Of a stretch of DNA of 58,174 nucleotides, positions 2,441 to 55,459 are shown in pieces; within the stretch, counting starts at the first letter, position 1, and each line of letters opens with the position of its first letter. This DNA is from a virus. Its lineage: Duplodnaviria > Caudoviricetes. The notes beneath the pieces are model-generated. The model worked only from the letters and a program-made list of their open reading frames with translations. It was not told the origin of the DNA and did not search any database. Made by a program: the position numbers and the translations under genes. Location: positions 1 through 58,174 of IMG/VR virus record IMGVR_UViG_3300032309_000708; one strand, 5' to 3'.

Positions 2441-3671
2441 ATATATCCCCTTCAACTAATACAGATTGACCATACATCGGAGTGAAACTTTTGTTACCTA
2501 CCACACACCACAACACAGGCACACCTAGCTCTGCCCACTTGTCTGCTTTTGATTCACCATAGAAGTAACCATCGGTTAGCATGATTAGTGCTTGTGGTTT
2601 AATCTTGTTCTCCATCATAAACACAGGCACACATTCTGGTGTAGTACCACCACCCCCCGCAGGTTGAGTAGAGTCGGCAAAGTTTTGTACCTCAGCACCC
2701 GTATACATTTCATGTTTTGCTACGTGCGCATCCCAATACAGTAGGTCAACTATCTCAGGCATTACCTCATCACAGATTGATTTGCTTTCACCTAAGAACC
2801 TACCAAGTATCGCTCCACCGATAGAACCTGATGTGTCAACACCGATAGAGAACCGTTCTGCCTTCTCTGTTATGCAACTCGGCATTACGATATCGATGCC
2901 TAAGTATCTGCGGTTAGGTCTGCGCCATGTCGATTGGTCTCCACCTTTCACATTGGTTTTGACAAACTCACGCAACGCTTCCTTCCAATCTACCTTTGGG
3001 TGCAGCATCTCATTGATGCCACGCATCACGTTACCTTTCATCTTACCTGCTAAGATTGAACCTTCACGCAAAGCATGGTCTATCTCGTTGGATAGTTCTT
3101 GTGCTTCTTCCTCAGTAAGTTCTTCAGCACCTTCCCAATCATGGTCGTCAAGGTCACCACCACTCGGTGATTTCTTATCACCTCTACCTTCACCGTCTCT
3201 ACCTCCCTTACATTCTTTCTTCAACAACTCGTACACCTGACGTGTATCCATGTCACGATACTTCTCGTCTAGCAAACCCATCAACCTACCATCTTCGTCT
3301 CTCGGCATAGCTACGATGTCTTGTGCTTTATCTGAGTCGGCAATCTGTAAGTTAATAACATAGTCCATCGCTGCATTAGCTAGATGCGCATTCTCTTTGG
3401 CTAAGTTCTTCCACACCATCAAGTGACGATACGCTTTGTGCATAGCTTCATGCACTACTAGGAAAGCCAACTGCTTATCATCTAAGCGATCAACAAACGC
3501 ACGACCATACGTTACATCTCTACCATTGGTCTTTGCTGTCGGTGTAATCTCATCGACTACCACCTTACCTACCATGAACACACCTGAGAACAAACAAAAA
3601 TCTTTGTGTCTCATCAATTGAGAGTGCGCTCTCTCGATACGCTGCTCTGCTGTTAGTTTTTTACTGGACAT
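2433..3671 (-). CDS. DUF2201-type metallopeptidase plus VWA domain protein
   Basis: HEAMH zincin motif, TWRRPNRR, VDTSGS MIDAS, GGGGT and LTDG motifs. Confidence 0.85.
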   Translation of the reverse strand: MSSKKLTAEQRIERAHSQLMRHKDFCLFSGVFMVGKVVVDEITPTAKTNGRDVTYGRAFVDRLDDKQLAFLVVHEAMHKAYRHLMVWKNLAKENAHLANAAMDYVINLQIADSDKAQDIVAMPRDEDGRLMGLLDEKYRDMDTRQVYELLKKECKGGRDGEGRGDKKSPSGGDLDDHDWEGAEELTEEEAQELSNEIDHALREGSILAGKMKGNVMRGINEMLHPKVDWKEALREFVKTNVKGGDQSTWRRPNRRYLGIDIVMPSCITEKAERFSIGVDTSGSIGGAILGRFLGESKSICDEVMPEIVDLLYWDAHVAKHEMYTGAEVQNFADSTQPAGGGGTTPECVPVFMMENKIKPQALIMLTDGYFYGESKADKWAELGVPVLWCVVGNKSFTPMYGQSVLVEGDIYD

Positions 3672-41907: not shown

Positions 41908-43350
41908 ATGTCAATCAATTACGGCCCAATAAACGAGATTAAAGATTTAGCGTTTAAATACTCTAAGCCACAACTTGGACGTATGGCGCAGCTTGGGTTG
42001 ATCGATACCCAAAAAGCTGTATTAGCAGCTATGATGAGAGAACGTGTTGCTAAACAAGATGCACAACCGCCGACCGCAACAGTAGCGCAAGATGCACTTG
42101 GCTTACAACCTCCACCACAACAACAAGCTCAACCGCAGCCGCAACAAATGGGCATGCAGCAAGGGCAACCTCAACAGGCTCAGCCACAACCACAACTAGC
42201 TCAAGCCCCTGCTGGCATAGAGTCTTTACCTGCCGGTAATGTTGGCAACTACGCTGGTGGTGGCATTGTTGCGTTTGATGAAGGTGGTGAGGTACCGGGT
42301 TACGCTCGTGGTGGGTTTCCTACTATGCCAAGTACAAATATTCAGTTAGGTCAACTTAAAGGCCCACAGGAAAAAACAATTGAAGAAATAATTGCTGAAC
42401 AACAAGGCGTATACGAGCAACAAGGCTTAGTAAACCCGTATGAAGGGTTAATGCAACAGCAAGAAGCTAAGCGTGGTGAACTCGATACACGTAGAGAACA
42501 AGCTAAAGGTGAGTTCTTAATGAATCTTGGCACCGGTTTAATGCAGGCTCAAAAAGGTAGAGAGTTAGCAGCTTTAGGTACAGGTGCGCTTAAAGGCATG
42601 GCAGACTACAAAGATGCTATGAAAGATTTACGTGCATCTGAAGAAAAACTTGACGATAGAATCGGCGCATTTAAGTTGGCTGATTATCAGGCTAAGAAAA
42701 CCGGCACAGATGCTGCTATTGCTAGACGTGACTCGCTTCGTGATAAAGTTATAGAAACCGAAAATAAAAATATCGAAGCTCAAAATGCTGTTGCAGTTGA
42801 AGGCAAGAAACTTGAGATGCAAGGGTTTAATACCGCAATGGGTTATAAAGGCACTGTCGATGCCGCAAGTATACGCAACGCAGCTATGCCTGACTTATAT
42901 AAGATGGCAAATTCACCCGACATGTTAAAATCTATGCCTAACTCTACGTTTGCTCAACGACTAGAAGCAGTAGGTAAATACGCGCATCCTAAAGATTCGT
43001 ATAACGCATTAACATCACGTTTTAACTTATTAAATAAAACCATTGCTGAGACTAACTATCCATTAAGTATATCGTACAACTTGGCAAAGACAGATGCGGA
43101 GAGAAAAGAAATTTTAGATAAGATGAATGCAAATGCTACTAGAATTAGAACAGAGCAGCAGTGGACCGCGTCTGATAATGCTAGACTGCAACGCGAACAA
43201 GCTCAATTAGATGGTACAACACAAACACAAGGTCAAGCTTTACCACTGCCCCCTACCGAAGCAGAACTTCAAAAAGGGCAGCTATATACTACTGCAAGAG
43301 GCCCAGCTATTTGGAATGGAACAGCGTTTGTAGCAGCACCTGCAAGATAA
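41908..43350 (+). CDS. putative ejection protein
   Basis: Q/P linker, YAGGGIVAF motif, coiled coil. Confidence 0.65.
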   Translation: MSINYGPINEIKDLAFKYSKPQLGRMAQLGLIDTQKAVLAAMMRERVAKQDAQPPTATVAQDALGLQPPPQQQAQPQPQQMGMQQGQPQQAQPQPQLAQAPAGIESLPAGNVGNYAGGGIVAFDEGGEVPGYARGGFPTMPSTNIQLGQLKGPQEKTIEEIIAEQQGVYEQQGLVNPYEGLMQQQEAKRGELDTRREQAKGEFLMNLGTGLMQAQKGRELAALGTGALKGMADYKDAMKDLRASEEKLDDRIGAFKLADYQAKKTGTDAAIARRDSLRDKVIETENKNIEAQNAVAVEGKKLEMQGFNTAMGYKGTVDAASIRNAAMPDLYKMANSPDMLKSMPNSTFAQRLEAVGKYAHPKDSYNALTSRFNLLNKTIAETNYPLSISYNLAKTDAERKEILDKMNANATRIRTEQQWTASDNARLQREQAQLDGTTQTQGQALPLPPTEAELQKGQLYTTARGPAIWNGTAFVAAPAR

Positions 43351-46300
43351 TGGCAAATACATTTTCGTTTGAAGACGCTTTAAAACCAGCGCCACAACAA
43401 GGGCCTACTACGTTTTCGTTTGAAGATGCGTTTAAGCCCGCCGTAACTTCTGGGCCGAATCCACTAGACCCACAACAACCTGCGCCAGTACAAGCAGCTC
43501 AACCTGCGCCTACACCTACACCTGTTGCTAAAGAAGAACCCGGCCTTTTAAATGATATATCTAAAGGCTTTCAACGTATACCAGCTAGCTTAGCTGAACA
43601 ATACGAAGGGATATTTACACGTAAAACTGCGCAGATGGCCAAGGGCAATCAAGTCCAAACTGCGTTGTATAACATGATTGATGCTGGTCAAATTAAATCC
43701 GACAGCGATCTTAATAAAGCTTATTTAAAATTACTGTATGGTAAAGAGCAACTATCTCCAAAAGAAATACTAGCGCATGGTAATTTAAAACAAAGTTTGG
43801 CAGCCGCAGATGCGTATGAGTATATGAACTCGTCACCAGAGCATCGTGCTGCTATGAGAAAAGGCGTTGAAACTGCAGCGTCTCAATCTTTAACTAGGTT
43901 TGAAGAATCACGAGCACGTAGTAAAGAACGTGAAGCAGAACTAGAAAAGCTTGCCCCAAGAGTTAGACAGTTTACTGATATTGGTAGTCCGTATGAAGCG
44001 GCTAGTTGGGCGGCTGGTAGATTGCCTGAGTTTGTCGGTACAAACCTTCCACAGATAGCTGCGGGTTATTTTACTGGTCCCGGCGGTCTTGCCCTTACTA
44101 GCGTAATACCAGAACTTTCAGGTGGAACTAAAGAACGTGTTAAGTACATGGAAGGTATTGTTAAAGACGAACCTGATCCAGCTAAACGCAGTCAAGCTTT
44201 AATTGATTACATAAATAAAACGCAAGATGTTACGTTGCAGGCGGCTGTGCTTAATGGTCTAACGGACATGATTATTGGTCCTGAAGCCGAAGCAGTTAAG
44301 CTTGGTGTACAAAGCGCATTTAAAGAAGAGGTACGCAAAGAAATTCTTAAGAAGCTACCAAAAGTTGTAGGTGGTGAAGCTTTAGGTGAAGGCGCTACTG
44401 GCGGCATCCAAGAAATTACCAATATGGTAGCGGAAAGATCTTTGGGTGAGATGCAAGGTGGCGTATTTACTGCTGAGAATGCTAAACGTATTATCAACTC
44501 AATGGCTGATGAAGCACTTGGGGGCGCAGGTGTATCTACTGGAATGCAACTAACTAAAGCCGCGTTAGCTAAGAAAAACTTAGCCGACACAGATACGCCT
44601 GAAGGCAGGGCAATGCGTGGCCTTGATGATTTAGTTAATCGAGAAGAAGCCGGAACAACAGAAGATATGACCGTTCCGCCTGCCCCACCTGCTCCACCCA
44701 CAGCACCACAACGTGCAATACCTACCGAACCACTATTTACGTTTGATACCCCTGAACAGGCGCAAGAGCGTACTAACCTATTAAAAGTTAACCGCCCTAA
44801 AGAAAACTTTGCGGTTCAAGAAACAGAAGATGGCAAATTCGGCGTATATCAAATACCAGTCGGAGAAACAGGAGGTACAAATGTTACCCCACCTGCAGTA
44901 AATAAAAAAGAAGTAGAACAAATAGCTAGAGGTGGGTGGTTTGAGTTATCCGATGCAGAGCGTTTAGAACTGCAGGGGGATTTACAGTTTCTTAAAGATT
45001 CAGGAAGAACTATAACCATAAATAGTATACCCGAAGAAATTCGAGCAAAACTAAGCCATTCTGCATTAATAAATTTAAAATCCGCGTTAAACCAAGATAT
45101 CAATGCAACTATAGCTGCGCTAACGCCGTCTAGCAAAAAAGAAACAGCCACAGGAGGTGAAGATGTTACCCCACCTATCACAGACGCAGATGGAGCTGGC
45201 ACTGAAAATATTGGCGAACCCCCACAAGGTACCGGTGCCGGAATCCCTCCATCATCTGAGGGAACAGGACTGGGTGTTTCTGATACAGATGTTACGGGAG
45301 CTGGAGTATCAGAAGGAATTCAGCCTCATACACTAACCAGAAAGCAATTCCAAGAAGCTAATACAGACCTTCAAACGTTTAATAATTTATTTTCGCCAAA
45401 CTTTGAACTTACAGACAACTTAGATACGTTATTAACTAGCGGCACTGAAAGCGATCTTCACGTTGCAAGCAAAATATTTGGGCTTAAACCTGTTATAGGT
45501 AAAAAACGCGCTGCGGAAAATATTTCAGCGACTATTAAAAAAATGAAATTGGCAGAGGGTTTAGATCCCGCACAAGTGGCGGGGATGAAGTTGCCTGAGC
45601 TAAAAGAATTAGCCAACGAACTTGGAATATCTACATACGGAAATAAAGATGTACTTATATCAAAAATTAATAACTTCTACCCTAATTTAGAAAGTAAAGT
45701 TGAAGAAAATTTAAAAAATTATGCCCACGAAACCGCTGTTCGTAGTGCTGTAGTAAATGGAAAACCTGTAAGTGATGAGGTACTAAAAGACTATCCGGAG
45801 ATTGCTGCGTACGCAACCCCATTGGGATCAGGGGCATATACTCAAGCTATAAAAACGTTGTCAAGGAAAATGCTACCGCAACATCTAATGGACGTGCCAT
45901 CTACTGCGCGACACCTTAGAGAAGATGCAGAGCAATCAGGTGATGGAAGACAAGCTGCCGTGCTAAGGGACATTGCCGATGCAATGGAAGAGTATTACAA
46001 AAACGCTTTTGGTATAAAAGAAGAAGCACCTGCAGCTGAAGAAACTGTACCTACAGAAGAAGAAGTAACCGCGCTTAACGACACTATTGAAAAAGGTATA
46101 AAGGATAAACTTGAAGGTTTATTAGTCGGCGATGAAGTTAGATTTGGTAACACCCCCGGCGTTGTTGTCGGCTTAGAAGGTGATTATGCTAAGTTTCATT
46201 CCGCTAGTTCATCTAATCCTAAAGCGTACACACGCGTACTAAAAAAACAATTAACTTTTGTATCGCGTCCTAATACAAATTTTACATCTGCGTCTTCAAA

Positions 46301-49300
46301 AGAACCTACAAAATTTGGCGAAGAATCGGGGATGCTTGACGTAAACAAAGCTAGGCTTACTAAGACGCTTGGCGCAAATATGTATAAGGAAAACCTTGCC
46401 GACGTTGCAGTTAAAGAGATGCTGCAAAATTCTTTTGACTCTGTAAAAGCTAATGTTTTCTTTGGAAATATTAAAGAAGGCAAAATAGATATTAAATTTG
46501 ATTCAGGTAAGCGAACTATAACTATTACAGATAACGGGGAAGGCATGACGCCTGAAATCGTTAGAAAAGCTTTCTTTACTATCGGTGGGTCACACAAAGC
46601 TGGTGTACCTATGGAACTGCAAAGTGGCGGTTTTGGTATGGCAAAGCTTGGCTTTATTATGGGGTCCGAAAGTATACAGTTAAATACTGTTAAAGATGGC
46701 GTGCGCACTAAAGTTGATGCTACTTCTGAAGATATAGGCAGTGACAACTTTAAGATACAAAAAAGCCCTGCTCCAGCAAATGAGCATGGCACTACTATAA
46801 CAGTAAAAATACCTGAAACCTATACCGATGCCCGCAGTGGTGATGAAAAATCAGTTTATTTTCCTTATGGCTTATATGGTGTAAGTGCATTAAATCGTCC
46901 ATTAATAGGGCCAGTAGAAGTAAATGTAGATTTTGATGGGGATAAGAAGACCCTTCCTATTGGGGTTAACTTTGATTTTGAAGCTACGCCAAAACTAACT
47001 ACAGTTAAGTTCCCTTGGGGTACAGCAGATGTGTATTTTGGTGTAGAGCGCAAGCCAGAAAGATACGAACCAAAACATAGAGTTTTAAGTAGCGGTGTAT
47101 ATCAGTTTGATTATAATAAATTTAATTTAGGGCAAAATGAACCAATACCATACGACATCATAGTAGATGTTAAATCTGCTGTGGAAGCTACAGATAGAGA
47201 ATATCCGTTTGAAAAAAATAGAGGAAGTTTTAATGAAGTAATTATAGAAGATATAGCATCATTAGCGCAGTATCTTGCAAAAGTAGCTAGAGGCCACGAA
47301 GCAGAAGGATTGCAAGAAACATTTAAAGATATTGTAACTATGCCTCGTACAGAGGTGGGTACAGAAACGGCTGAAGCATCTGCAAAACTTAGAAAAGTTT
47401 TTGACCAGCGTGGCGCAGACAAGGGTACGTACGAGTTACCACCAATGCCTAAAGAAATTATAATATCAGGCGGTACAGTTACAGATAACAAAGGTGCTGT
47501 GCTAGTAGAAAAAGAAAAAACAGAAGATAGAAAACGTGAGTCTGGGTTTGAAGCGGATAAAGCTGCGCCTGAAATGTCCCAGTTCTTAGTGGATATGAAG
47601 CAGGACCCACGACAGCCAATATTTCATAGTAATGTAAATACAGACTTATTAGAAATTGGTCGTAAATATGGTAACCCAGAACAGTTCTTTGCCGAGTTAG
47701 GTACTCTAGTAGTAGAGATGAAAGAGGAACTATCTAAGAGTGGTATATGGACATACGACCAGTTATCTCCAGAAAATCTATTTTTTGCCGGTGTATCCAT
47801 AGATAAAGGCTACGGCGGTGTGTTTATAAGAGTGCCATTTAAAGGTATTTTACTTAACCCGTTCTATGACTGGGGTGCAAAAACTTTATTCGGCGTTCGT
47901 CAAAACTTTTTAAACACAATGATTCATGAGATTGCACACCAAACAAGTGGTGAGCATGATCGCTCTCATGAAAATGCCATGCTAAAGATAGAACAGTATT
48001 TAGCAGATACTGGCACATTAGATTATTTTAGAGACGCTATACTAGATATTCTAGTAAAGCATGAGTCAACTTTTACCGCAATGCGGGAGGCGTATGGAAG
48101 ATCAACAACAAAGAACGTTGCAAAGTCTCTTGAGGATTACGGGAAATCTCCCACCTCAGCAGAAATTGGAAGAGATGAGGGCCGCCGCACAGACACGTCT
48201 GGTAAATTATCAGAACGAGGGGAACCAGTACGGAGTAGCGACTTACGTACCGATAGTGGCGAAACTGGAAAAAGCGAAGTCGGTAGAGGAGGCCCTAAGT
48301 TTTCTGTAAGCAACGAAGAGAAGATTATTAACCAAGGCATGGTTGGGGGTGACTTACACCCAACAGTAGTAGACGCTATTGCTAATAACGACCTTAACGG
48401 TGCGCTAAAACTAGTAGCTGATCGTTTATCTAGTATTGGGTTTAAAACCAAATCGGGTTACTTTTTAGGGCAGCTTGCAAATAGACTAGCAGATTTAAAC
48501 TTGCCTACAGGTATACGTATTGGCGACCAACGTAATTTAACGCGTAGGTCTATTGATTTATCCACTGCCCCTGCACAGATACAACTGTTTAATTTTATAC
48601 GTGTGGCTATGCCAGATGTGTATAACAAGTATTTCCAAGGTTACGATAAAGCTGAAAACCTTGAACAAGTGTATGCCGGTCTAAAGCATATTCAAAACAA
48701 TCCAAAGTTAAAGTCAGTGTTGCCACAGTACGAATCAATATTGCGGTCGTTTGACAACAACATGGTTGCTTTAAAAGCTCTTGGTGTTTACTACCCAAGA
48801 TTCGATGAAATAAATTTAAACGATAAACTCAAAGACGGGCTTTCGTATCAAACGTTTTTACATGAAGTAGTACACGCTGCTACAGAAATACTTTTGCAAA
48901 CGCCAGCAAATGAGCGTACCGCTGAACAAAATGAAGCTATTGCAGAGTTAGAGAAACTATTTAATGCAGCAAAAGCTAATTCGAATGTTGCCCATTATGG
49001 GTTTACAGATTTATCAGAATTTATAGCAGAGGTGTTTACAAACCCGGTATTTATAAAAGACTTAAAGGGTATACCATATCCACCTGCACGTACAAATATA
49101 TTTAATAGGTTTGTAAAGATAATAATGGATTTGATTGGTATGGACAACGTTGCTGGCCGTGCAATGATAGAGGCCCAAAAGTTGTTTAATGCTGACCGTC
49201 CAAACATACCAATGTCGGCGGGTCCTAGATTTGCAACAAGGCAACGTGGACCTATTAGTTCTAAATGGCGAATTGTAGAAGATACCATGAAGAGCGTTAA

Positions 49301-52300
49301 GAATTGGGAAGTTATTAAGAACGACTTAGTTCCTGCAATGTGGGACGCTACTAATGGTGTGTTCCGTAGCGCTATGCTTGGTGTTATGAACTTACGTCAG
49401 ATTGCTGACGTTACTAAAACTAAGTTCCCGCAGATTGACGCTGCTATTCGTACGATTGAAAAGATGCTTGCTTATCGTGGCAAGATTATGAACGACGGCG
49501 GTGAAATTGTTCAACGTTGGACTAAGGCTCAAGCTAAGAACTTAAAAGGTTCGCAGTTGCTAGGTCGTGTTATGTTAGAAGCTACTATTCGTGGGGTAGA
49601 AGTTGACCCACAAAGTAGTCAATATAATCCACTTAATTTTGTAGTAAATAAAGAATTAGTGGACGCTTGGGACGCATTAGGTCCAGACTTCCAACAGATA
49701 TACAGGGATGTACGGGATTTCTATAAACGTGCCGTAGAAGAAACAGTACGCCTAATGAAAGAACGTGCTAACAGTGTAACTGACCCTGTAGAGCGCCAAG
49801 AACTTTTAGACAGGATTGATGCACAGTTTGGCCCTGATAAATTAAAAGGTCCGTACTTCCCGTTGCGTCGTTTCGGTGAGTTCTGGTTCCAAGTGGGTGA
49901 AGGTAACTTTAAAGAATTCTATATGTACGAAAACCGTATAACTAGAACTATAGCTATGCGTGTTAGAAAGCGTGAATTATCCAAAGGTAATGCGCGACAA
50001 CGTGCGCTAGCAGAAACAATAAGTAAGGGTAACGGCGTGTCTACGTTGTACAGTCAGAACGTGGGTACTACTAAAATACTACAAGACGTACAAGATATAG
50101 TTGATAGTATAGGTAATAGCGTGGTTGATACAGCTACAGGCTTACCTAGAGATAAAACTCAAGATGAGTTAAAGGGCGAGATCAGAGATAGCTTAAACCA
50201 GCTTATCTACATACTGCTACCACAACAGAGCATGCGTAAGATGTTTATTAACCGCAAAGCAATTCAAGGCGCAAGCGGCGATATGTTACGTGTGTTTGCT
50301 ACACATGCGGTTCACAGTGCTTACCAACGTTCACGCTTTAAATATGCTCAAGACTTTATGGATAACTTATCCAATGCGCAAAATTGGATTGCTTCGTTTG
50401 CAAAAGGTGATAAGGCTGAAGTTTATCGTGATTATGTAAATGAAGTAGAAAAACGTTCTAAAACAATTTTAGGTACTGAAGATACTAGTTTGGCTGCAAG
50501 AGCTGCGGGTAAGGCTTCTGAGGCAGTGTTCTACTTTATGTTGTCTGCACCGTTTACTGCTATGTTAAACCTAGTGGGCTTTGCTCAAATAGCTATGCCG
50601 TACATTGGTGGTAGATATGGCTACGCAAAAACTAATGCCCGTATATTAGAAAACATGGGTAAGTATTTGCAGACAGTACCGAAGCGTACATTCTCACCTT
50701 TAGTAAACGGTGCTGTAATGGATATGTCTTTCCCTTCTATAGTAGAAGGTGGTAACTTAACTGGCATATTAAAAGACGCGGCACAACAGCTTTTAGACGA
50801 AGAGCAAATTAATATTTCTTTAACTAATGATGTTTTAAATGTTGGTTCAGGCCCAACAGCGGCATATACTGGCACATACAACGCTGTTAAACGTGGTATA
50901 TCCGCTTTGTTCCATCAATCAGAACGTCTGAACCGTGAGATTACATTACTGTCGGTTGTGGAACTTGCATATGAAAAGCTCATGTCCGAGCCTATCAAAG
51001 ATGTTAAAGGTATTGTTAAACGTGACGCACAGGGTCAACCTATGCGTTATACCGACAATGCTACAACCTCTGATGGTACAACTCAGTATTCACAAGAAGC
51101 TTTAGAGTTAGCTATTAACGAAGCTAAAGATATTGCGGGCTTATCGCTTGGTGACTTTACTCGCCAAATGAAACCTAGATTTTTTACGCCACCAATATTA
51201 AGTGTATTAACTAAGTTTAAACAGTATGCAGTTTTAGCTTCTTATGCAGTTATTCGCAATGCACATTTAGGATTACTCAAACCGTTTTCGAAAGCAGAGT
51301 TAAATGAGTTGCGTGGTGTACTAGAAGAGCATTACAAAACTGCTGTAGATAAAGATAAGATAATTGAACAGCAAATGGCTGAAGCGCAAACGCGCCAAAA
51401 AGAAATTGCTAAAGAAGCGCGTCGTAGGCTAGCAGGTATATTAGGTATGACGTATTTGTTTGGTGGCTATGTTGCCTTGCCGTTTTTTAGCACGGTTACA
51501 CCTATACTGGTTGGCATGTTGGCGGGTGACGAAGACGATGAGGACGACTTCTTTGACTGGGAAAATTGGTTTAAGAATTATATGGAAACCGAATTTGGTG
51601 GTTATGTCGGCGCTATGTTACAGAAGTTCGGTGTTGACCAAGAAAAAGCAAATAAGGTAGGTAAAAAAGTTAGTGAGACCCTTGTATATGGTCCAGCTTC
51701 TACAGTTACTGGCGGTGCTTTATCTGATCGTGTTAGCTTAGACTTAAAAAATCTATGGTACAGAGATGGTCGTTATTCACCTGACACCCGTGAAAGTATT
51801 GTAGAAAGCATGATTGCTAACGCAGGTCCTGTGGTTGGTTTAACTGTAAACGCAGCAGACGCATGGGATATGATACAAGAGGGTAAAGTTGGCCGTGCGT
51901 TTGAGAGAATGGCTCCAGCTCTATTTGCTAAACCAGTAACCGCAGCTCGTTTAGCTACTGAAGGCGCTAAAACAAAAGGTGGTGACGTTCTTGTAGATGA
52001 ACTTACAACTACAGAAATAGCATTGCAAGCAATTGGTCTACAACCTTTACGTGTAGCAAAAGCACAAAAAGCTTCAATTGAAACAGTAGAAAAAGTGCAG
52101 AAGATTCAGGACCAGTACAGCTCCTTAATGAATAGGTTATGGATGGAGCGTAACAACCCACAAGAATTTAATGACGCACTTGAAAAACTAAACGAGTTTG
52201 CTATGAAACATCCGGGGTATAAAATAAACGGCAGGACTATAAAAGAGTCGTTTAAGAAACGTGCTGAAGATGCAGCGTTGGCAGATGTGTTTGGTGCTCG

Positions 52301-52364
52301 TATACCTAAGCCGTTACAAAGCGACCCTACAGTTACGAACATGCCAAACTACGGTAAGGATTAA
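43350..52364 (+). CDS. giant polyvalent ejection protein (3004 aa): SAP-like motif, GHKL ATPase, two HExxH metallopeptidase domains
   Basis: TAATG-coupled start; LPELKELA..LGI..GNK..LI; EMLQNSFD, DNGEGM, GGFG and HGT GHKL boxes; HEIAH; HEVVH...EFIAE. Confidence 0.85.
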   Translation: MANTFSFEDALKPAPQQGPTTFSFEDAFKPAVTSGPNPLDPQQPAPVQAAQPAPTPTPVAKEEPGLLNDISKGFQRIPASLAEQYEGIFTRKTAQMAKGNQVQTALYNMIDAGQIKSDSDLNKAYLKLLYGKEQLSPKEILAHGNLKQSLAAADAYEYMNSSPEHRAAMRKGVETAASQSLTRFEESRARSKEREAELEKLAPRVRQFTDIGSPYEAASWAAGRLPEFVGTNLPQIAAGYFTGPGGLALTSVIPELSGGTKERVKYMEGIVKDEPDPAKRSQALIDYINKTQDVTLQAAVLNGLTDMIIGPEAEAVKLGVQSAFKEEVRKEILKKLPKVVGGEALGEGATGGIQEITNMVAERSLGEMQGGVFTAENAKRIINSMADEALGGAGVSTGMQLTKAALAKKNLADTDTPEGRAMRGLDDLVNREEAGTTEDMTVPPAPPAPPTAPQRAIPTEPLFTFDTPEQAQERTNLLKVNRPKENFAVQETEDGKFGVYQIPVGETGGTNVTPPAVNKKEVEQIARGGWFELSDAERLELQGDLQFLKDSGRTITINSIPEEIRAKLSHSALINLKSALNQDINATIAALTPSSKKETATGGEDVTPPITDADGAGTENIGEPPQGTGAGIPPSSEGTGLGVSDTDVTGAGVSEGIQPHTLTRKQFQEANTDLQTFNNLFSPNFELTDNLDTLLTSGTESDLHVASKIFGLKPVIGKKRAAENISATIKKMKLAEGLDPAQVAGMKLPELKELANELGISTYGNKDVLISKINNFYPNLESKVEENLKNYAHETAVRSAVVNGKPVSDEVLKDYPEIAAYATPLGSGAYTQAIKTLSRKMLPQHLMDVPSTARHLREDAEQSGDGRQAAVLRDIADAMEEYYKNAFGIKEEAPAAEETVPTEEEVTALNDTIEKGIKDKLEGLLVGDEVRFGNTPGVVVGLEGDYAKFHSASSSNPKAYTRVLKKQLTFVSRPNTNFTSASSKEPTKFGEESGMLDVNKARLTKTLGANMYKENLADVAVKEMLQNSFDSVKANVFFGNIKEGKIDIKFDSGKRTITITDNGEGMTPEIVRKAFFTIGGSHKAGVPMELQSGGFGMAKLGFIMGSESIQLNTVKDGVRTKVDATSEDIGSDNFKIQKSPAPANEHGTTITVKIPETYTDARSGDEKSVYFPYGLYGVSALNRPLIGPVEVNVDFDGDKKTLPIGVNFDFEATPKLTTVKFPWGTADVYFGVERKPERYEPKHRVLSSGVYQFDYNKFNLGQNEPIPYDIIVDVKSAVEATDREYPFEKNRGSFNEVIIEDIASLAQYLAKVARGHEAEGLQETFKDIVTMPRTEVGTETAEASAKLRKVFDQRGADKGTYELPPMPKEIIISGGTVTDNKGAVLVEKEKTEDRKRESGFEADKAAPEMSQFLVDMKQDPRQPIFHSNVNTDLLEIGRKYGNPEQFFAELGTLVVEMKEELSKSGIWTYDQLSPENLFFAGVSIDKGYGGVFIRVPFKGILLNPFYDWGAKTLFGVRQNFLNTMIHEIAHQTSGEHDRSHENAMLKIEQYLADTGTLDYFRDAILDILVKHESTFTAMREAYGRSTTKNVAKSLEDYGKSPTSAEIGRDEGRRTDTSGKLSERGEPVRSSDLRTDSGETGKSEVGRGGPKFSVSNEEKIINQGMVGGDLHPTVVDAIANNDLNGALKLVADRLSSIGFKTKSGYFLGQLANRLADLNLPTGIRIGDQRNLTRRSIDLSTAPAQIQLFNFIRVAMPDVYNKYFQGYDKAENLEQVYAGLKHIQNNPKLKSVLPQYESILRSFDNNMVALKALGVYYPRFDEINLNDKLKDGLSYQTFLHEVVHAATEILLQTPANERTAEQNEAIAELEKLFNAAKANSNVAHYGFTDLSEFIAEVFTNPVFIKDLKGIPYPPARTNIFNRFVKIIMDLIGMDNVAGRAMIEAQKLFNADRPNIPMSAGPRFATRQRGPISSKWRIVEDTMKSVKNWEVIKNDLVPAMWDATNGVFRSAMLGVMNLRQIADVTKTKFPQIDAAIRTIEKMLAYRGKIMNDGGEIVQRWTKAQAKNLKGSQLLGRVMLEATIRGVEVDPQSSQYNPLNFVVNKELVDAWDALGPDFQQIYRDVRDFYKRAVEETVRLMKERANSVTDPVERQELLDRIDAQFGPDKLKGPYFPLRRFGEFWFQVGEGNFKEFYMYENRITRTIAMRVRKRELSKGNARQRALAETISKGNGVSTLYSQNVGTTKILQDVQDIVDSIGNSVVDTATGLPRDKTQDELKGEIRDSLNQLIYILLPQQSMRKMFINRKAIQGASGDMLRVFATHAVHSAYQRSRFKYAQDFMDNLSNAQNWIASFAKGDKAEVYRDYVNEVEKRSKTILGTEDTSLAARAAGKASEAVFYFMLSAPFTAMLNLVGFAQIAMPYIGGRYGYAKTNARILENMGKYLQTVPKRTFSPLVNGAVMDMSFPSIVEGGNLTGILKDAAQQLLDEEQINISLTNDVLNVGSGPTAAYTGTYNAVKRGISALFHQSERLNREITLLSVVELAYEKLMSEPIKDVKGIVKRDAQGQPMRYTDNATTSDGTTQYSQEALELAINEAKDIAGLSLGDFTRQMKPRFFTPPILSVLTKFKQYAVLASYAVIRNAHLGLLKPFSKAELNELRGVLEEHYKTAVDKDKIIEQQMAEAQTRQKEIAKEARRRLAGILGMTYLFGGYVALPFFSTVTPILVGMLAGDEDDEDDFFDWENWFKNYMETEFGGYVGAMLQKFGVDQEKANKVGKKVSETLVYGPASTVTGGALSDRVSLDLKNLWYRDGRYSPDTRESIVESMIANAGPVVGLTVNAADAWDMIQEGKVGRAFERMAPALFAKPVTAARLATEGAKTKGGDVLVDELTTTEIALQAIGLQPLRVAKAQKASIETVEKVQKIQDQYSSLMNRLWMERNNPQEFNDALEKLNEFAMKHPGYKINGRTIKESFKKRAEDAALADVFGARIPKPLQSDPTVTNMPNYGKD
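45163..45336 (+). CDS. nested +1-frame gene A inside the giant ORF (57 aa)
   Basis: AGGAGGT-4nt-ATG; MLPHLSQTQMELALKILANPHKVPVPESLHHLREQDWVFLIQMLRELEYQKEFSLIH; host frame is a G/T/E/P low-complexity linker. Confidence 0.7.
   Translation: MLPHLSQTQMELALKILANPHKVPVPESLHHLREQDWVFLIQMLRELEYQKEFSLIH
48094..48309 (+). CDS. nested +1-frame gene B inside the giant ORF (71 aa)
   Basis: GGGAGG-3nt-ATG; amphipathic helical MEDQQQRTLQSLLRI...AKSVEEALSFL; host frame is a G/R/S/E linker. Confidence 0.6.
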   Translation: MEDQQQRTLQSLLRITGNLPPQQKLEEMRAAAQTRLVNYQNEGNQYGVATYVPIVAKLEKAKSVEEALSFL

Positions 52365-52452: not shown

Positions 52453-52650
52453 CTACCTAATCCGCCAAACACGCAAGCCCCTAATCCCTTCCTCAATTAC
52501 CAATTTCATAACTACCTTGTACCCGAGTCGGCGGGTCACTGTTTTTATTTCTTCTTTTGCAATATCTTTGTGTATGCACGGGACAAAAAAAGAAGCTCCA
52601 AGTTTGAAGCCTCTCCAATTTATCTCGTAGCTAACACCATCAATTAGCAT
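52453..52650 (-). CDS. small putative DNA-binding protein
   Basis: W....G.SFFVPC and GLRVWR motifs; GAGG RBS before ATG 52650. Confidence 0.7.
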   Translation of the reverse strand: MLIDGVSYEINWRGFKLGASFFVPCIHKDIAKEEIKTVTRRLGYKVVMKLVIEEGIRGLRVWRIR

Positions 52651-55459
52651 CTTCCTCGGTACGTTCTGCTGCGACTTGTTCAGCCAAAAGTGTGGTATCC
52701 ATAAACTCACCTTTAGCGCAGTCAAATACATATGTGTCTACAGGCGGGGTGCTAGATAACTTTGTACCCTTAGACATACGCTTCTTAACCGTGCCTACAT
52801 AGATACCTTCGGTTGCCAAAGAGTTAAGCACATCCTTCATAGTGATTTGGTTCTCAGCACAATACTCTCTGAACTTCTTAGCTATGATGAATAACTTCTG
52901 GGTATCTGGCTCCATGCGTAAAATAAGCTCATACCGTGGCTCCAGTATTGGCAATAGCTCTACCCCTGTACGCTTATCTACATCATCGTTAATTACCAAA
53001 GTATTCATGCGATGCTCATTCCAGAACTCACCTATCACGCTAGCAACAGAAGAAGCTGGTGGCTTAATCTCCTGACGCATTTGGGTAAACTCTTTCAGCA
53101 TCCACTTAAATACCTTGCCGACATCAATATCGATAATCCCAAGACGTTTAGCGAACATCGCACCTGCTAAGTTGCAAGCAGCCACACCCGACCAAAATCT
53201 CTCCCTATTCGTAAAACCAATCTTACGGTCGATAATAATTTGCAAATCTTTAACTTCTTGGATACGTTCCTCAAGATTACAAACCAAGTCACGAAGGTAG
53301 ATACGCCCCGCATGCCCATAGTTTGTGTACAGCTTGGGGAATATCTCGTCGGCCTCTTCCTTTGGTATCTGTGTACTAGCAGGTATCTGCCATTCAACCA
53401 AACGCATAAGCTCACCATCTGGTGTGGACTTCAACGACTTCAGCTTATCCACGCCGGAAGCATTAGAAGAAGATAGAACCATGTTCTGCCATTTAGCAAA
53501 GTTCATACGCTCTACGTTCTCACTAGCTTTCATCCTGCTACGACCACGACCTTGTGAAATAGCATAGGCAAAGTCAGAGAAAGCATCAGGGTGCATCTTG
53601 GTAATCTCATCGCAACCTAAAGGCAGGTTGTTCATAACTCCAAGACGGTGTAGCCGTGTCGCTAAAGTATCCCGCTCAATCAACATAGCTTCTTCTGGAT
53701 GACCATACACACTGTGCATAGCCTTAATAACTGTAGTCTTACCAGTACCAGATTCGTTGTTAATCATGTTTAATAGCGCACCTTTTAGGTTCAAGTGCCT
53801 GAGTAGTGGCCCACCAAAAGCAGTGAAGAACCCAAACGCCATAGGCTCAAAACCCTCACGTCCATACGTATTGATTACTCTCTTCCATTCATCATAGTCG
53901 CCAACAGGTGTAAAGTGATCTGCGATTGGCGATGTGTAACTGGAAGGTGGGCTGTATCTATCTCCATCTGCACAAATTTCTGTATCTCCTACTACAAAAG
54001 ATTTGTTCTTATCTGTCCACCCAAACTGGGTTCTCATAATAGCTGCTCCTTCTTTGTACTGTAGCTCTTTGGTAAACTTAACAATATAGCCCATGATTAA
54101 ATCCATCTGCTTCTTCATAGCTATAACACCATACCAAGCAAGTTTTTCTTTTAGTTTGTCCGGAGTCAATAAATCAACCGCCGGTAACGCAAACTCTTTG
54201 ATGCCATCTTTCGGTGTATGTAAACGCATCCAAACAACTTCGCCGTTCTGTGGGTCTTTCATACGCTTAACTACATACAGGTCATGCTCATACACAAGCA
54301 CTGGGTCATCACCTTCATCCTTTGGTTTAACATATACGCCACCCATCCTGCCCCTAAAATAAGGAAAAGGATATTCAGGTATTGTGTACGTTACTGGCTT
54401 AGAAGCATCGGCTGCTGTGTACTCAACAACGTTATCCTCCGGAGCGGCCTCAACAATCTCTTGTCCTAGCGTAATAGGAGAATTAACTTTCCCTTGATTG
54501 GGGCACCCTGCACAGCCACCCGGATTGATACGCTCAAACGCATCACAAGTATACGGACCCTTGATCTTCGTTATCTTTTGTTGCGTACCTTCTGGTGAGT
54601 AGTCAGGATGACCTAACGATACTTCGTGAATACCAGTAGCCGAGTCAACACAGAATGCAGGTATAGATAAAGCTGCTCTCCATCTTGGCTCTTCAAGAGA
54701 TTCACGATTCTTAATCGCATCTTCAAGCTGCTTACACCCAGTACCCTTTTCATTCTTCAACATGATTGTGCTGAAGCGATGCTGCTTATTACCCATCAAC
54801 GCACGAGTCAACTCATTGATCTGCCCAACAGCATAATCAGGAATCTCATCCATGCTGCCACCAAGTGCTGCTCTAAATGTTTCAAAGTCAGTAGCTGGAG
54901 CTGGCAGTATCACCGTCACGTTAAGTGGTGGGTCAACCTTAAAGTTAAAGGTCTCAGGTACACGAAGAATAGATGCAACGTCCGCAGTTCTAGCAGGGTC
55001 GGCATCAAGCCCATGCTCGTGACACACAACTTTAAGGCGATCAGCTACAGGCTTCCATTGCTGCTTTGTTATGTCAGCAGTAAGAGGCCAATAGGCATGA
55101 ACACCACGTCCTGAGTCAACAAGGTATGGTCTTGGTAAACCTGCAGCAGCACAAAAATCTTTAAGTGCATCAACCCCTTCGGCTTTATCTTTATATGGCT
55201 TACCTTCACCACAATCAATATCTAACCAAAATGCACGAACAGCTTTTATGTTGTCGCCAGTACGAGTTTTCTTAGCTTCGTACTTAGCGCATGCAAAGTA
55301 TGCGTCGTAATGCTTTGCTACTAAATCATCTATTTCTTTTTCAGCTTCTTCTAAGGTCTGCACGAATACTTGTTTCGGCGTTCCTGTCTTCTTTAGTCCA
55401 ACTATGCAGTACCATCCCTCAGACGAGAGGACTGCAGACAGTAAGTCTGTTTTTGCCAT
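52640..55459 (-). CDS. primase-helicase (AEP-type primase plus DUF927 ATPase)
   Basis: WLDID, DSGRGVHAYW, RILRVP-like SILRVPET, C-x9-C..C cluster, SGTGKT Walker A, NYGHAG. Confidence 0.85.
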   Translation of the reverse strand: MAKTDLLSAVLSSEGWYCIVGLKKTGTPKQVFVQTLEEAEKEIDDLVAKHYDAYFACAKYEAKKTRTGDNIKAVRAFWLDIDCGEGKPYKDKAEGVDALKDFCAAAGLPRPYLVDSGRGVHAYWPLTADITKQQWKPVADRLKVVCHEHGLDADPARTADVASILRVPETFNFKVDPPLNVTVILPAPATDFETFRAALGGSMDEIPDYAVGQINELTRALMGNKQHRFSTIMLKNEKGTGCKQLEDAIKNRESLEEPRWRAALSIPAFCVDSATGIHEVSLGHPDYSPEGTQQKITKIKGPYTCDAFERINPGGCAGCPNQGKVNSPITLGQEIVEAAPEDNVVEYTAADASKPVTYTIPEYPFPYFRGRMGGVYVKPKDEGDDPVLVYEHDLYVVKRMKDPQNGEVVWMRLHTPKDGIKEFALPAVDLLTPDKLKEKLAWYGVIAMKKQMDLIMGYIVKFTKELQYKEGAAIMRTQFGWTDKNKSFVVGDTEICADGDRYSPPSSYTSPIADHFTPVGDYDEWKRVINTYGREGFEPMAFGFFTAFGGPLLRHLNLKGALLNMINNESGTGKTTVIKAMHSVYGHPEEAMLIERDTLATRLHRLGVMNNLPLGCDEITKMHPDAFSDFAYAISQGRGRSRMKASENVERMNFAKWQNMVLSSSNASGVDKLKSLKSTPDGELMRLVEWQIPASTQIPKEEADEIFPKLYTNYGHAGRIYLRDLVCNLEERIQEVKDLQIIIDRKIGFTNRERFWSGVAACNLAGAMFAKRLGIIDIDVGKVFKWMLKEFTQMRQEIKPPASSVASVIGEFWNEHRMNTLVINDDVDKRTGVELLPILEPRYELILRMEPDTQKLFIIAKKFREYCAENQITMKDVLNSLATEGIYVGTVKKRMSKGTKLSSTPPVDTYVFDCAKGEFMDTTLLAEQVAAERTEEDAN

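Follow-up and report, generated by a model that had tools for sequence, protein, structure and literature searches.

In the lambda spanin pair Rz/Rz1, according to the excerpted text of two reports (PMC6139136; PMC5295617), the two products are partners and the inner gene is often missed by gene callers. The same excerpts describe spanin pairs as embedded, overlapped and separated genes, and in PMC6139136 not one spanin family was found to have embedded as well as separated members. Here, we describe a locus of similar layout in IMG/VR virus record IMGVR_UViG_3300032309_000708 (Duplodnaviria; Caudoviricetes), whose 58,174 bases, with an estimated completeness of 92%, are called the window below. 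In this record, a 57-codon open reading frame (ORF) at 45163-45336 lies inside a giant gene for a virion protein. As in the excerpted accounts of Rz/Rz1, a small gene with its own Shine-Dalgarno (SD) sequence and start codon is situated inside a larger phage gene of the same strand, in the +1 frame and over a flexible linker of the host protein. The locus differs from Rz/Rz1 in that the nested family has both embedded and separated members, that its product is without a lipoprotein signal, lipobox or membrane segment, and that the host gene encodes a virion protein of 2000-3000 codons rather than a lysis protein; furthermore, a partnership of the two products is here something we only infer.

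Another described system with points in common is that of phage P1, whose giant (approximately 2000 amino acids, aa) internal protein DarB is ejected with the DNA and depends on smaller phage proteins for its entry into the head, as stated in the excerpted part of PMC12810830. The likeness to the P1 Dar helpers (Hdf, DarA and DdrA) consists in the giant ejected protein, the C-terminus of the window's giant protein matching a DarB-like PHROG. Nevertheless, the P1 helpers are separate genes, and the 57-aa protein has no sequence or fold relation to the Dar proteins (PHROGs, Pfam and PDB). The comparison with P1 Dar may be read as a functional analogy only, and that with Rz/Rz1 as an architectural one. 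Overprinted genes of small viruses, as treated in the excerpted text of PMC8227390, are also alike in that two proteins are read in two frames and one of them is compositionally odd or disordered. In contrast to those, the by-product-like frame here is the linker of the long host gene and not the small gene, and the genome is that of a 58-kb double-stranded DNA (dsDNA) phage, outside the small-virus size limits. The main texts of the literature searched describe neither a gene lying within a polyvalent, ejection or PLxRFG giant gene nor this protein family; in the text of the polyvalent-protein paper (PMC5512222), the word 'overlapping' has 0 occurrences. The nested gene is a new family in a new host-gene context, and the embedded-gene architecture itself is already known (Rz1 in Rz).

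The nested gene and its conservation in relatives

The features that carry the main result are the following.

43311..52364, + strand: giant host gene, 3017 codons from TTG 43311, encoding a virion/ejected 'polyvalent' protein
45152..45158, + strand: SD sequence AGGAGGT of the nested gene, 4 bases (GAAG) before the ATG; frame 0 reads it as part of T-G-G
45163..45336, + strand: nested gene (product P0001), ATG 45163, 57 sense codons, TAA 45334-45336, in the +1 frame of the giant gene

The nested ORF lies wholly within the larger gene of the same strand, in another frame. The earlier note on this stretch, made from the letters alone, had reported a perfect SD sequence four bases before the ATG of a 57-codon +1 ORF, over a low-complexity G/T/E/P linker of the host frame; coordinates and peptide were exactly borne out, and the host frame over the ORF is indeed a G/T/E/P/A/S-rich stretch. 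The length of the ORF by itself is not beyond chance expectation; three ATG ORFs of at least 57 codons (82, 63 and 57) occur in the giant gene when it is read in the +1 frame. What raises it above chance is its conservation in relatives. Judged by the conservation of ORF, start, stop and peptide across very divergent phages, the nested gene is real in the evolutionary sense.

The closest relative, a single IMG/VR contig (L003/L004), has 92% nucleotide identity to the window here. Over the same bases, 2 of the 57 residues of the +1 peptide are changed, and frame 0 is changed at 13 residues. When substitutions relative to this contig were counted in 150-nucleotide bins along the giant gene, frame-0 third positions dominated in nearly every bin. 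The bin 45151-45300 departs from this pattern, with 12, 2 and 0 substitutions at frame-0 positions 1, 2 and 3, respectively, frame-0 position 1 being +1 position 3. A second, weaker departure (9/4/5) was found in the bin starting at 48151, which corresponds to a control linker. This control, at 48058-48306, is the longest +1 open stretch of the giant gene (83 codons) and lies in another low-complexity linker. It was considered as a second nested gene and rejected as an ordinary relaxed linker, with substitutions relative to L003 at all frame-0 positions (11/4/7) and the +1 peptide not kept.

Contigs of four other sequencing runs contain 17 variant places in the nested ORF. Fourteen of them are at +1 position 3, and the remaining three comprise one synonymous CTG>TTG change and two peptide changes (M10V and L55P). 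The sequencing runs listed as containing the sequence included no RNA run, and in most of them its share was small. Many of the 17 variant alleles are those of L003/L004 and of another relative, L005, in which the block from SD to stop (2990-3174) is approximately 93% identical to window positions 45150-45336 while both flanks are unalignable; its nested ORF has the start and stop of the window and is again in the +1 frame of a giant gene. The alleles of the window, L004 and L005 share variants mosaically, as if the block had been exchanged between giant genes by recombination.

When the 57-aa peptide was searched with HMMER against a full set of 1.84 billion representative proteins, 10 small proteins of 50-97 aa were matched (expect values, E, of 2e-7 to 8e-4), all of which align up to their own C-terminal ...(L/I/V)(H/Q) end. 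A follow-up profile search yielded 63 clusters; their most frequent length is exactly 57 aa, and none has a name more informative than 'hypothetical protein'. Genome and virus collections scanned with the family alignment yielded two contigs from metagenome-assembled genomes (L008 and L009) and 325 IMG/VR stretches, the best 80 of which (L010-L089) were kept; with the window and L005, these make up a peptide-found set of 84 loci. In every one of the 84, an ORF of 53-67 codons lies wholly inside an open frame of the same strand, always in the +1 frame, the host frames ranging from about 600 to more than 2800 codons. Start codons, SD-like motifs and stop codons were counted on the 74 distinct ORF sequences among the loci used. 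The first position is homologous in all 74 and is occupied by ATG (62), GTG (11) or TTG (1); the stops are TAA (42), TAG (24) and TGA (8). An SD-like GGAG, GAGG or AGGA motif is present at -16 to -5 in 65 of the 74, compared with 7.1% of positions in giant ORFs. In 13 of the 74, a +1-frame stop lies 0-1 codons before the start.

The variation among these ORFs is distributed as expected for a coding +1 frame. Nucleotide entropy at +1 codon positions 1, 2 and 3 is 0.94, 0.59 and 1.19 (74 ORFs). Such values are typical of a sequence that codes in the +1 frame and opposite to those that coding in the giant frame would produce. Mean pairwise aa identity among members of 57 codons (1128 pairs) is 58% in the +1 frame, whereas frame 0 reaches 35% and the non-coding +2 frame 38%, at a family mean nucleotide identity of 65%; the +2 frame is interrupted by stops in 47 of 48 members. 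Over the ORF, the giant frame is rich in G, A, P, V and T, and the +1 peptide in L, E and Q. The ratio of non-synonymous to synonymous differences (pN/pS; Nei-Gojobori proportions, 48 non-independent pairs of 80-98% nucleotide identity) is 0.21 in the +1 frame versus 2.18 in frame 0, and it is lower in the +1 frame for all 48 pairs. The inner frame is under purifying selection with the host frame relaxed over the overlap, and by these measures the giant frame behaves like an unconstrained flexible linker. The claim of the earlier note that the +1 frame carries the constraint and is a real gene in a linker agrees with these results: SD, start, stop and peptide are kept in relatives and the frame-0 linker drifts. 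The per-frame selection contrast and the peptide homologues, both of which it had suggested looking for, were found as well, the latter by the HMMER and profile searches.

Host-based sample and free-standing homologues

A second set of loci was drawn through the host gene, with the C-terminal motif region of the giant protein (alignment A8), and 80 of 249 IMG/VR relatives were kept. Of the 80, 65 include the giant ORF's 5' end. Among these, 55 have a nested +1 ORF with a full profile match, one (L160) has the gene in a split giant gene and nine have none, so that 56 of 65 host-sampled loci carry the nested gene and all 55 unbroken nested matches are in the +1 frame. The other 15 loci are cut at the 5' end, and the nested gene is seen in three of them. 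At 95% identity the loci fall into 49 clusters, 41 with the gene and eight without it. In a tree of the giant conserved region, inferred with FastTree only, excluding L181 and with the placement of the window and L175 made unsure by their long branches, the eight gene-less clusters form one clade (support 100) inside the gene-carrying group, which fits a single loss.

The gene-less loci (L098, L106, L117, L122, L128, L145, L149, L155 and L172) belong to a tight clade with giant genes of 2310-2586 codons. No remnant was recognised in the +1 and +2 frames of their giant genes, where the best profile score was 9.3 bits (E 0.028). The linkers of this clade share Cys-rich +1 translations, apparently by-products of frame-0 conservation. 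In L160 (393-807), a break interrupts the giant frame 47 bases downstream of the nested gene. The N-terminal part stops at 679, and the remainder resumes at GTG 807 in the frame that the small gene uses. Either the giant gene is truly split in this relative or the assembly is in error.

The family also has members that are not nested, namely the divergent P0047-type members. In L175, a 62-codon homologue starts 17 nucleotides after the stop of the giant ORF, with TAGGAGG in front. The source record of L175 (58.9 kb) is rated 100% complete and the small gene is its sole copy there; over 1005 aa, the C-terminus of its giant ORF is homologous to that of the window, with 21% identity (E 2e-32). 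A 64-codon homologue is also found in L181, 34 nucleotides after the giant-ORF stop and behind TAGGAGGT, kinship to the window's giant protein being established for L175 only. The same search that found L181 also found L180, in which the ORF is nested in the +1 frame. One family is both embedded and separated, and it is always tied to a giant gene.

The free-standing homologues argue against a simple de novo birth inside the linker; given them, it is just as possible that the small gene was once independent and later became enclosed by the giant frame. The earlier note had spoken of an overprinted gene. The nested gene it pointed to is real; its birth on an older linker is only one possibility, capture of an independent gene being another of equal standing.

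The giant host protein and the small protein

In the window, genes for a large terminase, a portal protein, tail fibres and a 'DNA ejection protein' come before a single giant gene. An alternative start of the latter, ATG 43350 (MANTF...), agrees with the start of a relative, P0008. Pfam domains of the giant protein are LPD39 (9e-18), HATPase_c_3 (6e-12) and SAP (2e-5), and its C-terminus matches the PHROG 'DarB-like antirestriction' at 7e-44. It is one giant polypeptide with several LPD/effector domains and virion-gene neighbours. Given the LPD39, HATPase_c_3 and SAP domains and the DarB-like C-terminus, it is a 'large polyvalent protein' in the sense of the available text of PMC5512222. The last 1000 residues have 21-25% identity to giant proteins of cultured podoviruses, including Skulduggery, PBC5, Pavtok, POI1126, PEp14, LASTA, Parlo and others, which are annotated as DarB-like or PLxRFG. 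Compared with the giant C-termini of the main clade, that of the window is no more than about 22% identical.

The N-terminal thirds of the giant proteins, upstream of the nested gene, are extremely diverse (window 43311-44720 compared with L008, L009 and L010-L089). Despite this diversity, they have in common a short motif (G-F-I/M-P/R-S-...) close to the start, as well as amphipathic stretches rich in glycine. In the phages collection, only the C-terminus of the giant protein found cultured relatives; blastn and tblastn with the linker region and tblastn with two family members gave no match there. Metagenome contigs scanned with the frame-0 module alignment A4 and with P0020, and viral contigs scanned with P0020, yielded no relative.

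Downstream of the giant gene, on the opposite strand, the window has a gene of 939 codons at 52640-55459 (-), a primase/helicase by PHROGs. Opposite-strand ORFs of like size and position follow the giant/small pair in L175 (6373-9216) and L181 (5359-8208), these genes being of approximately 940-950 codons. Such like-sized ORFs in the window, L175 and L181 hint at conserved synteny across very divergent phages.

A duplication is also present around the start of the nested gene, with the following features.

44868-44894 and 45150-45176, + strand: 27-base direct repeat with the SD sequence and start of the nested gene
44868..44894, + strand: upstream duplicate of the SD and start, with AGGAGGT at 44870-44876 and ATG 44881, opening only MLPHLQ-stop
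44881..45162, + strand: in-frame segment between the repeat copies, 282 bases, 94 codons of the giant frame

AGGAGGT occurs three times on the + strand of the 58-kb window and 0 times on the - strand, and two of the copies (44870 and 45152) are in the giant gene. The 282-base segment is absent from a contig of run X3, which joins 44880 to 45163, and from a giant relative, P0006; the insertion is polymorphic in nature, since both of these are without it. Variants with and without the segment both retain one intact nested gene.

The product of the nested gene is predicted to be a small three-helix protein that is mostly acidic across the family. AlphaFold2 (81 sequences) gave a mean predicted local distance difference test (pLDDT) score of 80.9 and a predicted template modelling (pTM) score of 0.56, with helices at 7-18, 27-31 and 34-56. 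Invariant residues are A13, P26, L32, W37, L40, L44 and L47. The median isoelectric point (pI) of the family is 4.6, and 77 of 81 members are below 6. The 81 sequences hold 9 Cys in all and a longest apolar run of 7 residues; the last residue is Q in 42 and H in 39. The product, which would be soluble, has no lipoprotein signal, lipobox or membrane segment, which places it outside the o-spanins (the Rz1 family proper). Matches to described proteins were absent or weak: 0 of 12 members in Pfam, 0 of 81 in PHROGs v4 and only 4 of 81 in PADLOC, at E 0.0018 or weaker. A sequence profile search of the PDB reached a best E of 0.29, Foldseek gave no PDB match at E<=0.001, the best Z score in a wide VIA-align search was 5.2, which is within noise for helical models, and the ESM Atlas returned no usable match (best score 0.81).

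Possible roles of the nested gene

On balance, we consider it probable that 45163-45336 is a genuine coding gene embedded in the +1 frame of the giant gene and, at the same time, that its product is a partner of the giant protein. Ribosomes would start independently at the nested gene's own SD and ATG in a long late mRNA, a step that is strongly indicated, and the product would not be made by frameshifting out of the giant frame. The small protein may then act together with the giant ejected one, for instance by helping it to fold or to be packaged, or by serving as a keeper for a single domain of it in the producing cell. Whether the two proteins act together appears about evenly balanced; what speaks for it is that the genes stay linked whether the small one is embedded in the linker or free-standing after the giant stop. 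In a more far-reaching form, the 57-aa protein would be a dedicated cis-encoded partner, synthesised from the same mRNA close to the nascent chain and serving as chaperone, packaging adaptor or in-cell inhibitor, and small genes hidden in linkers would form a general unannotated coding layer; this we put forward tentatively, as a possibility short of an even chance.

A number of points weigh against a genuine gene with a partner role. Nine loci (eight clusters) with related giant genes have no detectable copy, nested or in the available flanks, which means that the gene is dispensable there or has been replaced. The first 84 loci were selected via the peptide and their conservation is partly circular, and the host-based sample answers this circularity within one part of the family only. 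The pairs behind the identity and pN/pS values are phylogenetically non-independent, and the ratio of non-synonymous to synonymous substitution rates (dN/dS) is biased in overlapping frames; the contrast between the +1 frame and frame 0 is large despite both. The window peptide is a divergent member, with 32-46% identity to most others, and is less acidic than the family (pI 6.2 versus the median of 4.6). No small-protein homologue was found when five cultured phages whose giant genes are distantly related were searched with the profile; all three control records known to carry the gene were matched. Translation of the nested gene is strongly suggested from comparative sequence data, and the partnership, for which the earlier note had named an inhibitor, chaperone or packaging partner as possibilities, is proposed from gene linkage; the great diversity of the giant N-terminal thirds argues against a specific contact with that part of the giant protein.

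The nested gene might be real and independently translated and act elsewhere, on a target in host takeover or counter-defence or as a late regulator, its position reflecting compactness and late co-expression. We regard this as doubtful, though by no means negligible. All the evidence that the gene is real fits it equally well, and the proteins with which phages inhibit host proteins are commonly small, acidic and helical. The great variation of the giant N-terminal regions next to a conserved small protein, and the clade that retains the giant gene without the small one, also suit an unrelated target. A partnership with the giant protein, on the other hand, is favoured by the linkage retained in both layouts, embedded and directly downstream, and by the L175 record, a complete genome in which the sole copy adjoins the giant gene. 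Linkage alone cannot separate a partner of the giant protein from a protein with another target.

The remaining explanations dispense with an independent gene. That programmed +1 (or -2) frameshifting in the linker yields a truncated giant protein, with the peptide as its C-terminal tail, is very improbable. In favour of it, the ORF shares the strand of a translated gene and is +1 to it, and in the window no stop interrupts the +1 frame over the 13 codons ahead of the ATG; however, the +1 stops 0-1 codons before the start in 13 of 74 ORFs exclude expression as a frameshifted tail, every one of the 74 has a start codon and 65 of them an SD-like motif in front of it, and the free-standing homologues have their own SD. 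A frameshift product of the lambda G/GT type was rejected on the same counts of starts and +1 stops. It is likewise highly unlikely that the conserved block is a nucleotide element (a structured RNA, a regulatory site or a recombination cassette) with the open +1 frame as a by-product. The L005 block, approximately 93% identical between unalignable flanks, looks as a recombining cassette might, but a nucleotide identity of 65% goes with a +1 peptide identity of 58%, variation falls in the order position 3 > 1 > 2 with a pN/pS of 0.21, and the RNA fold predicted for 45140-45340 is ordinary when set against shuffled sequences (z = -0.88; with no scan of Rfam made). Least credible, and extremely unlikely, is a chance ORF in a low-complexity linker, where G/A/P/T codons are poor in +1 stops and P/A/T/S exchanges could mimic +1 conservation. 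The three ATG ORFs of at least 57 codons in the +1 frame would be in keeping with chance, as would the frame-0 changes relative to L003, which are mostly P/A/T/S/V exchanges at position 1. Nevertheless, the comparable linker with a longer +1 ORF (48058-48306) is without such a pattern, homologous 57-aa peptides occur in giant genes whose frame-0 linkers cannot be aligned, free-standing homologues exist, and the E values were computed against billions of proteins.

The nested family spans hundreds of uncultured phage contigs (325 IMG/VR stretches in one scan), and it is largely invisible to routine annotation because gene callers disallow a gene inside a gene of the same strand. It provides a clean, statistically strong case of a same-strand nested gene in a large dsDNA phage, in which the frame of the long gene is the unconstrained one. 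Since the family is also free-standing, the origin of its embedded genes can be tested. A conserved, linked small gene offers a handle on the folding, inactivity or packing of giant ejected polyvalent proteins, which are poorly understood. If the small protein is indeed a partner of the giant one, the family would show how small genes move into and out of a giant frame.

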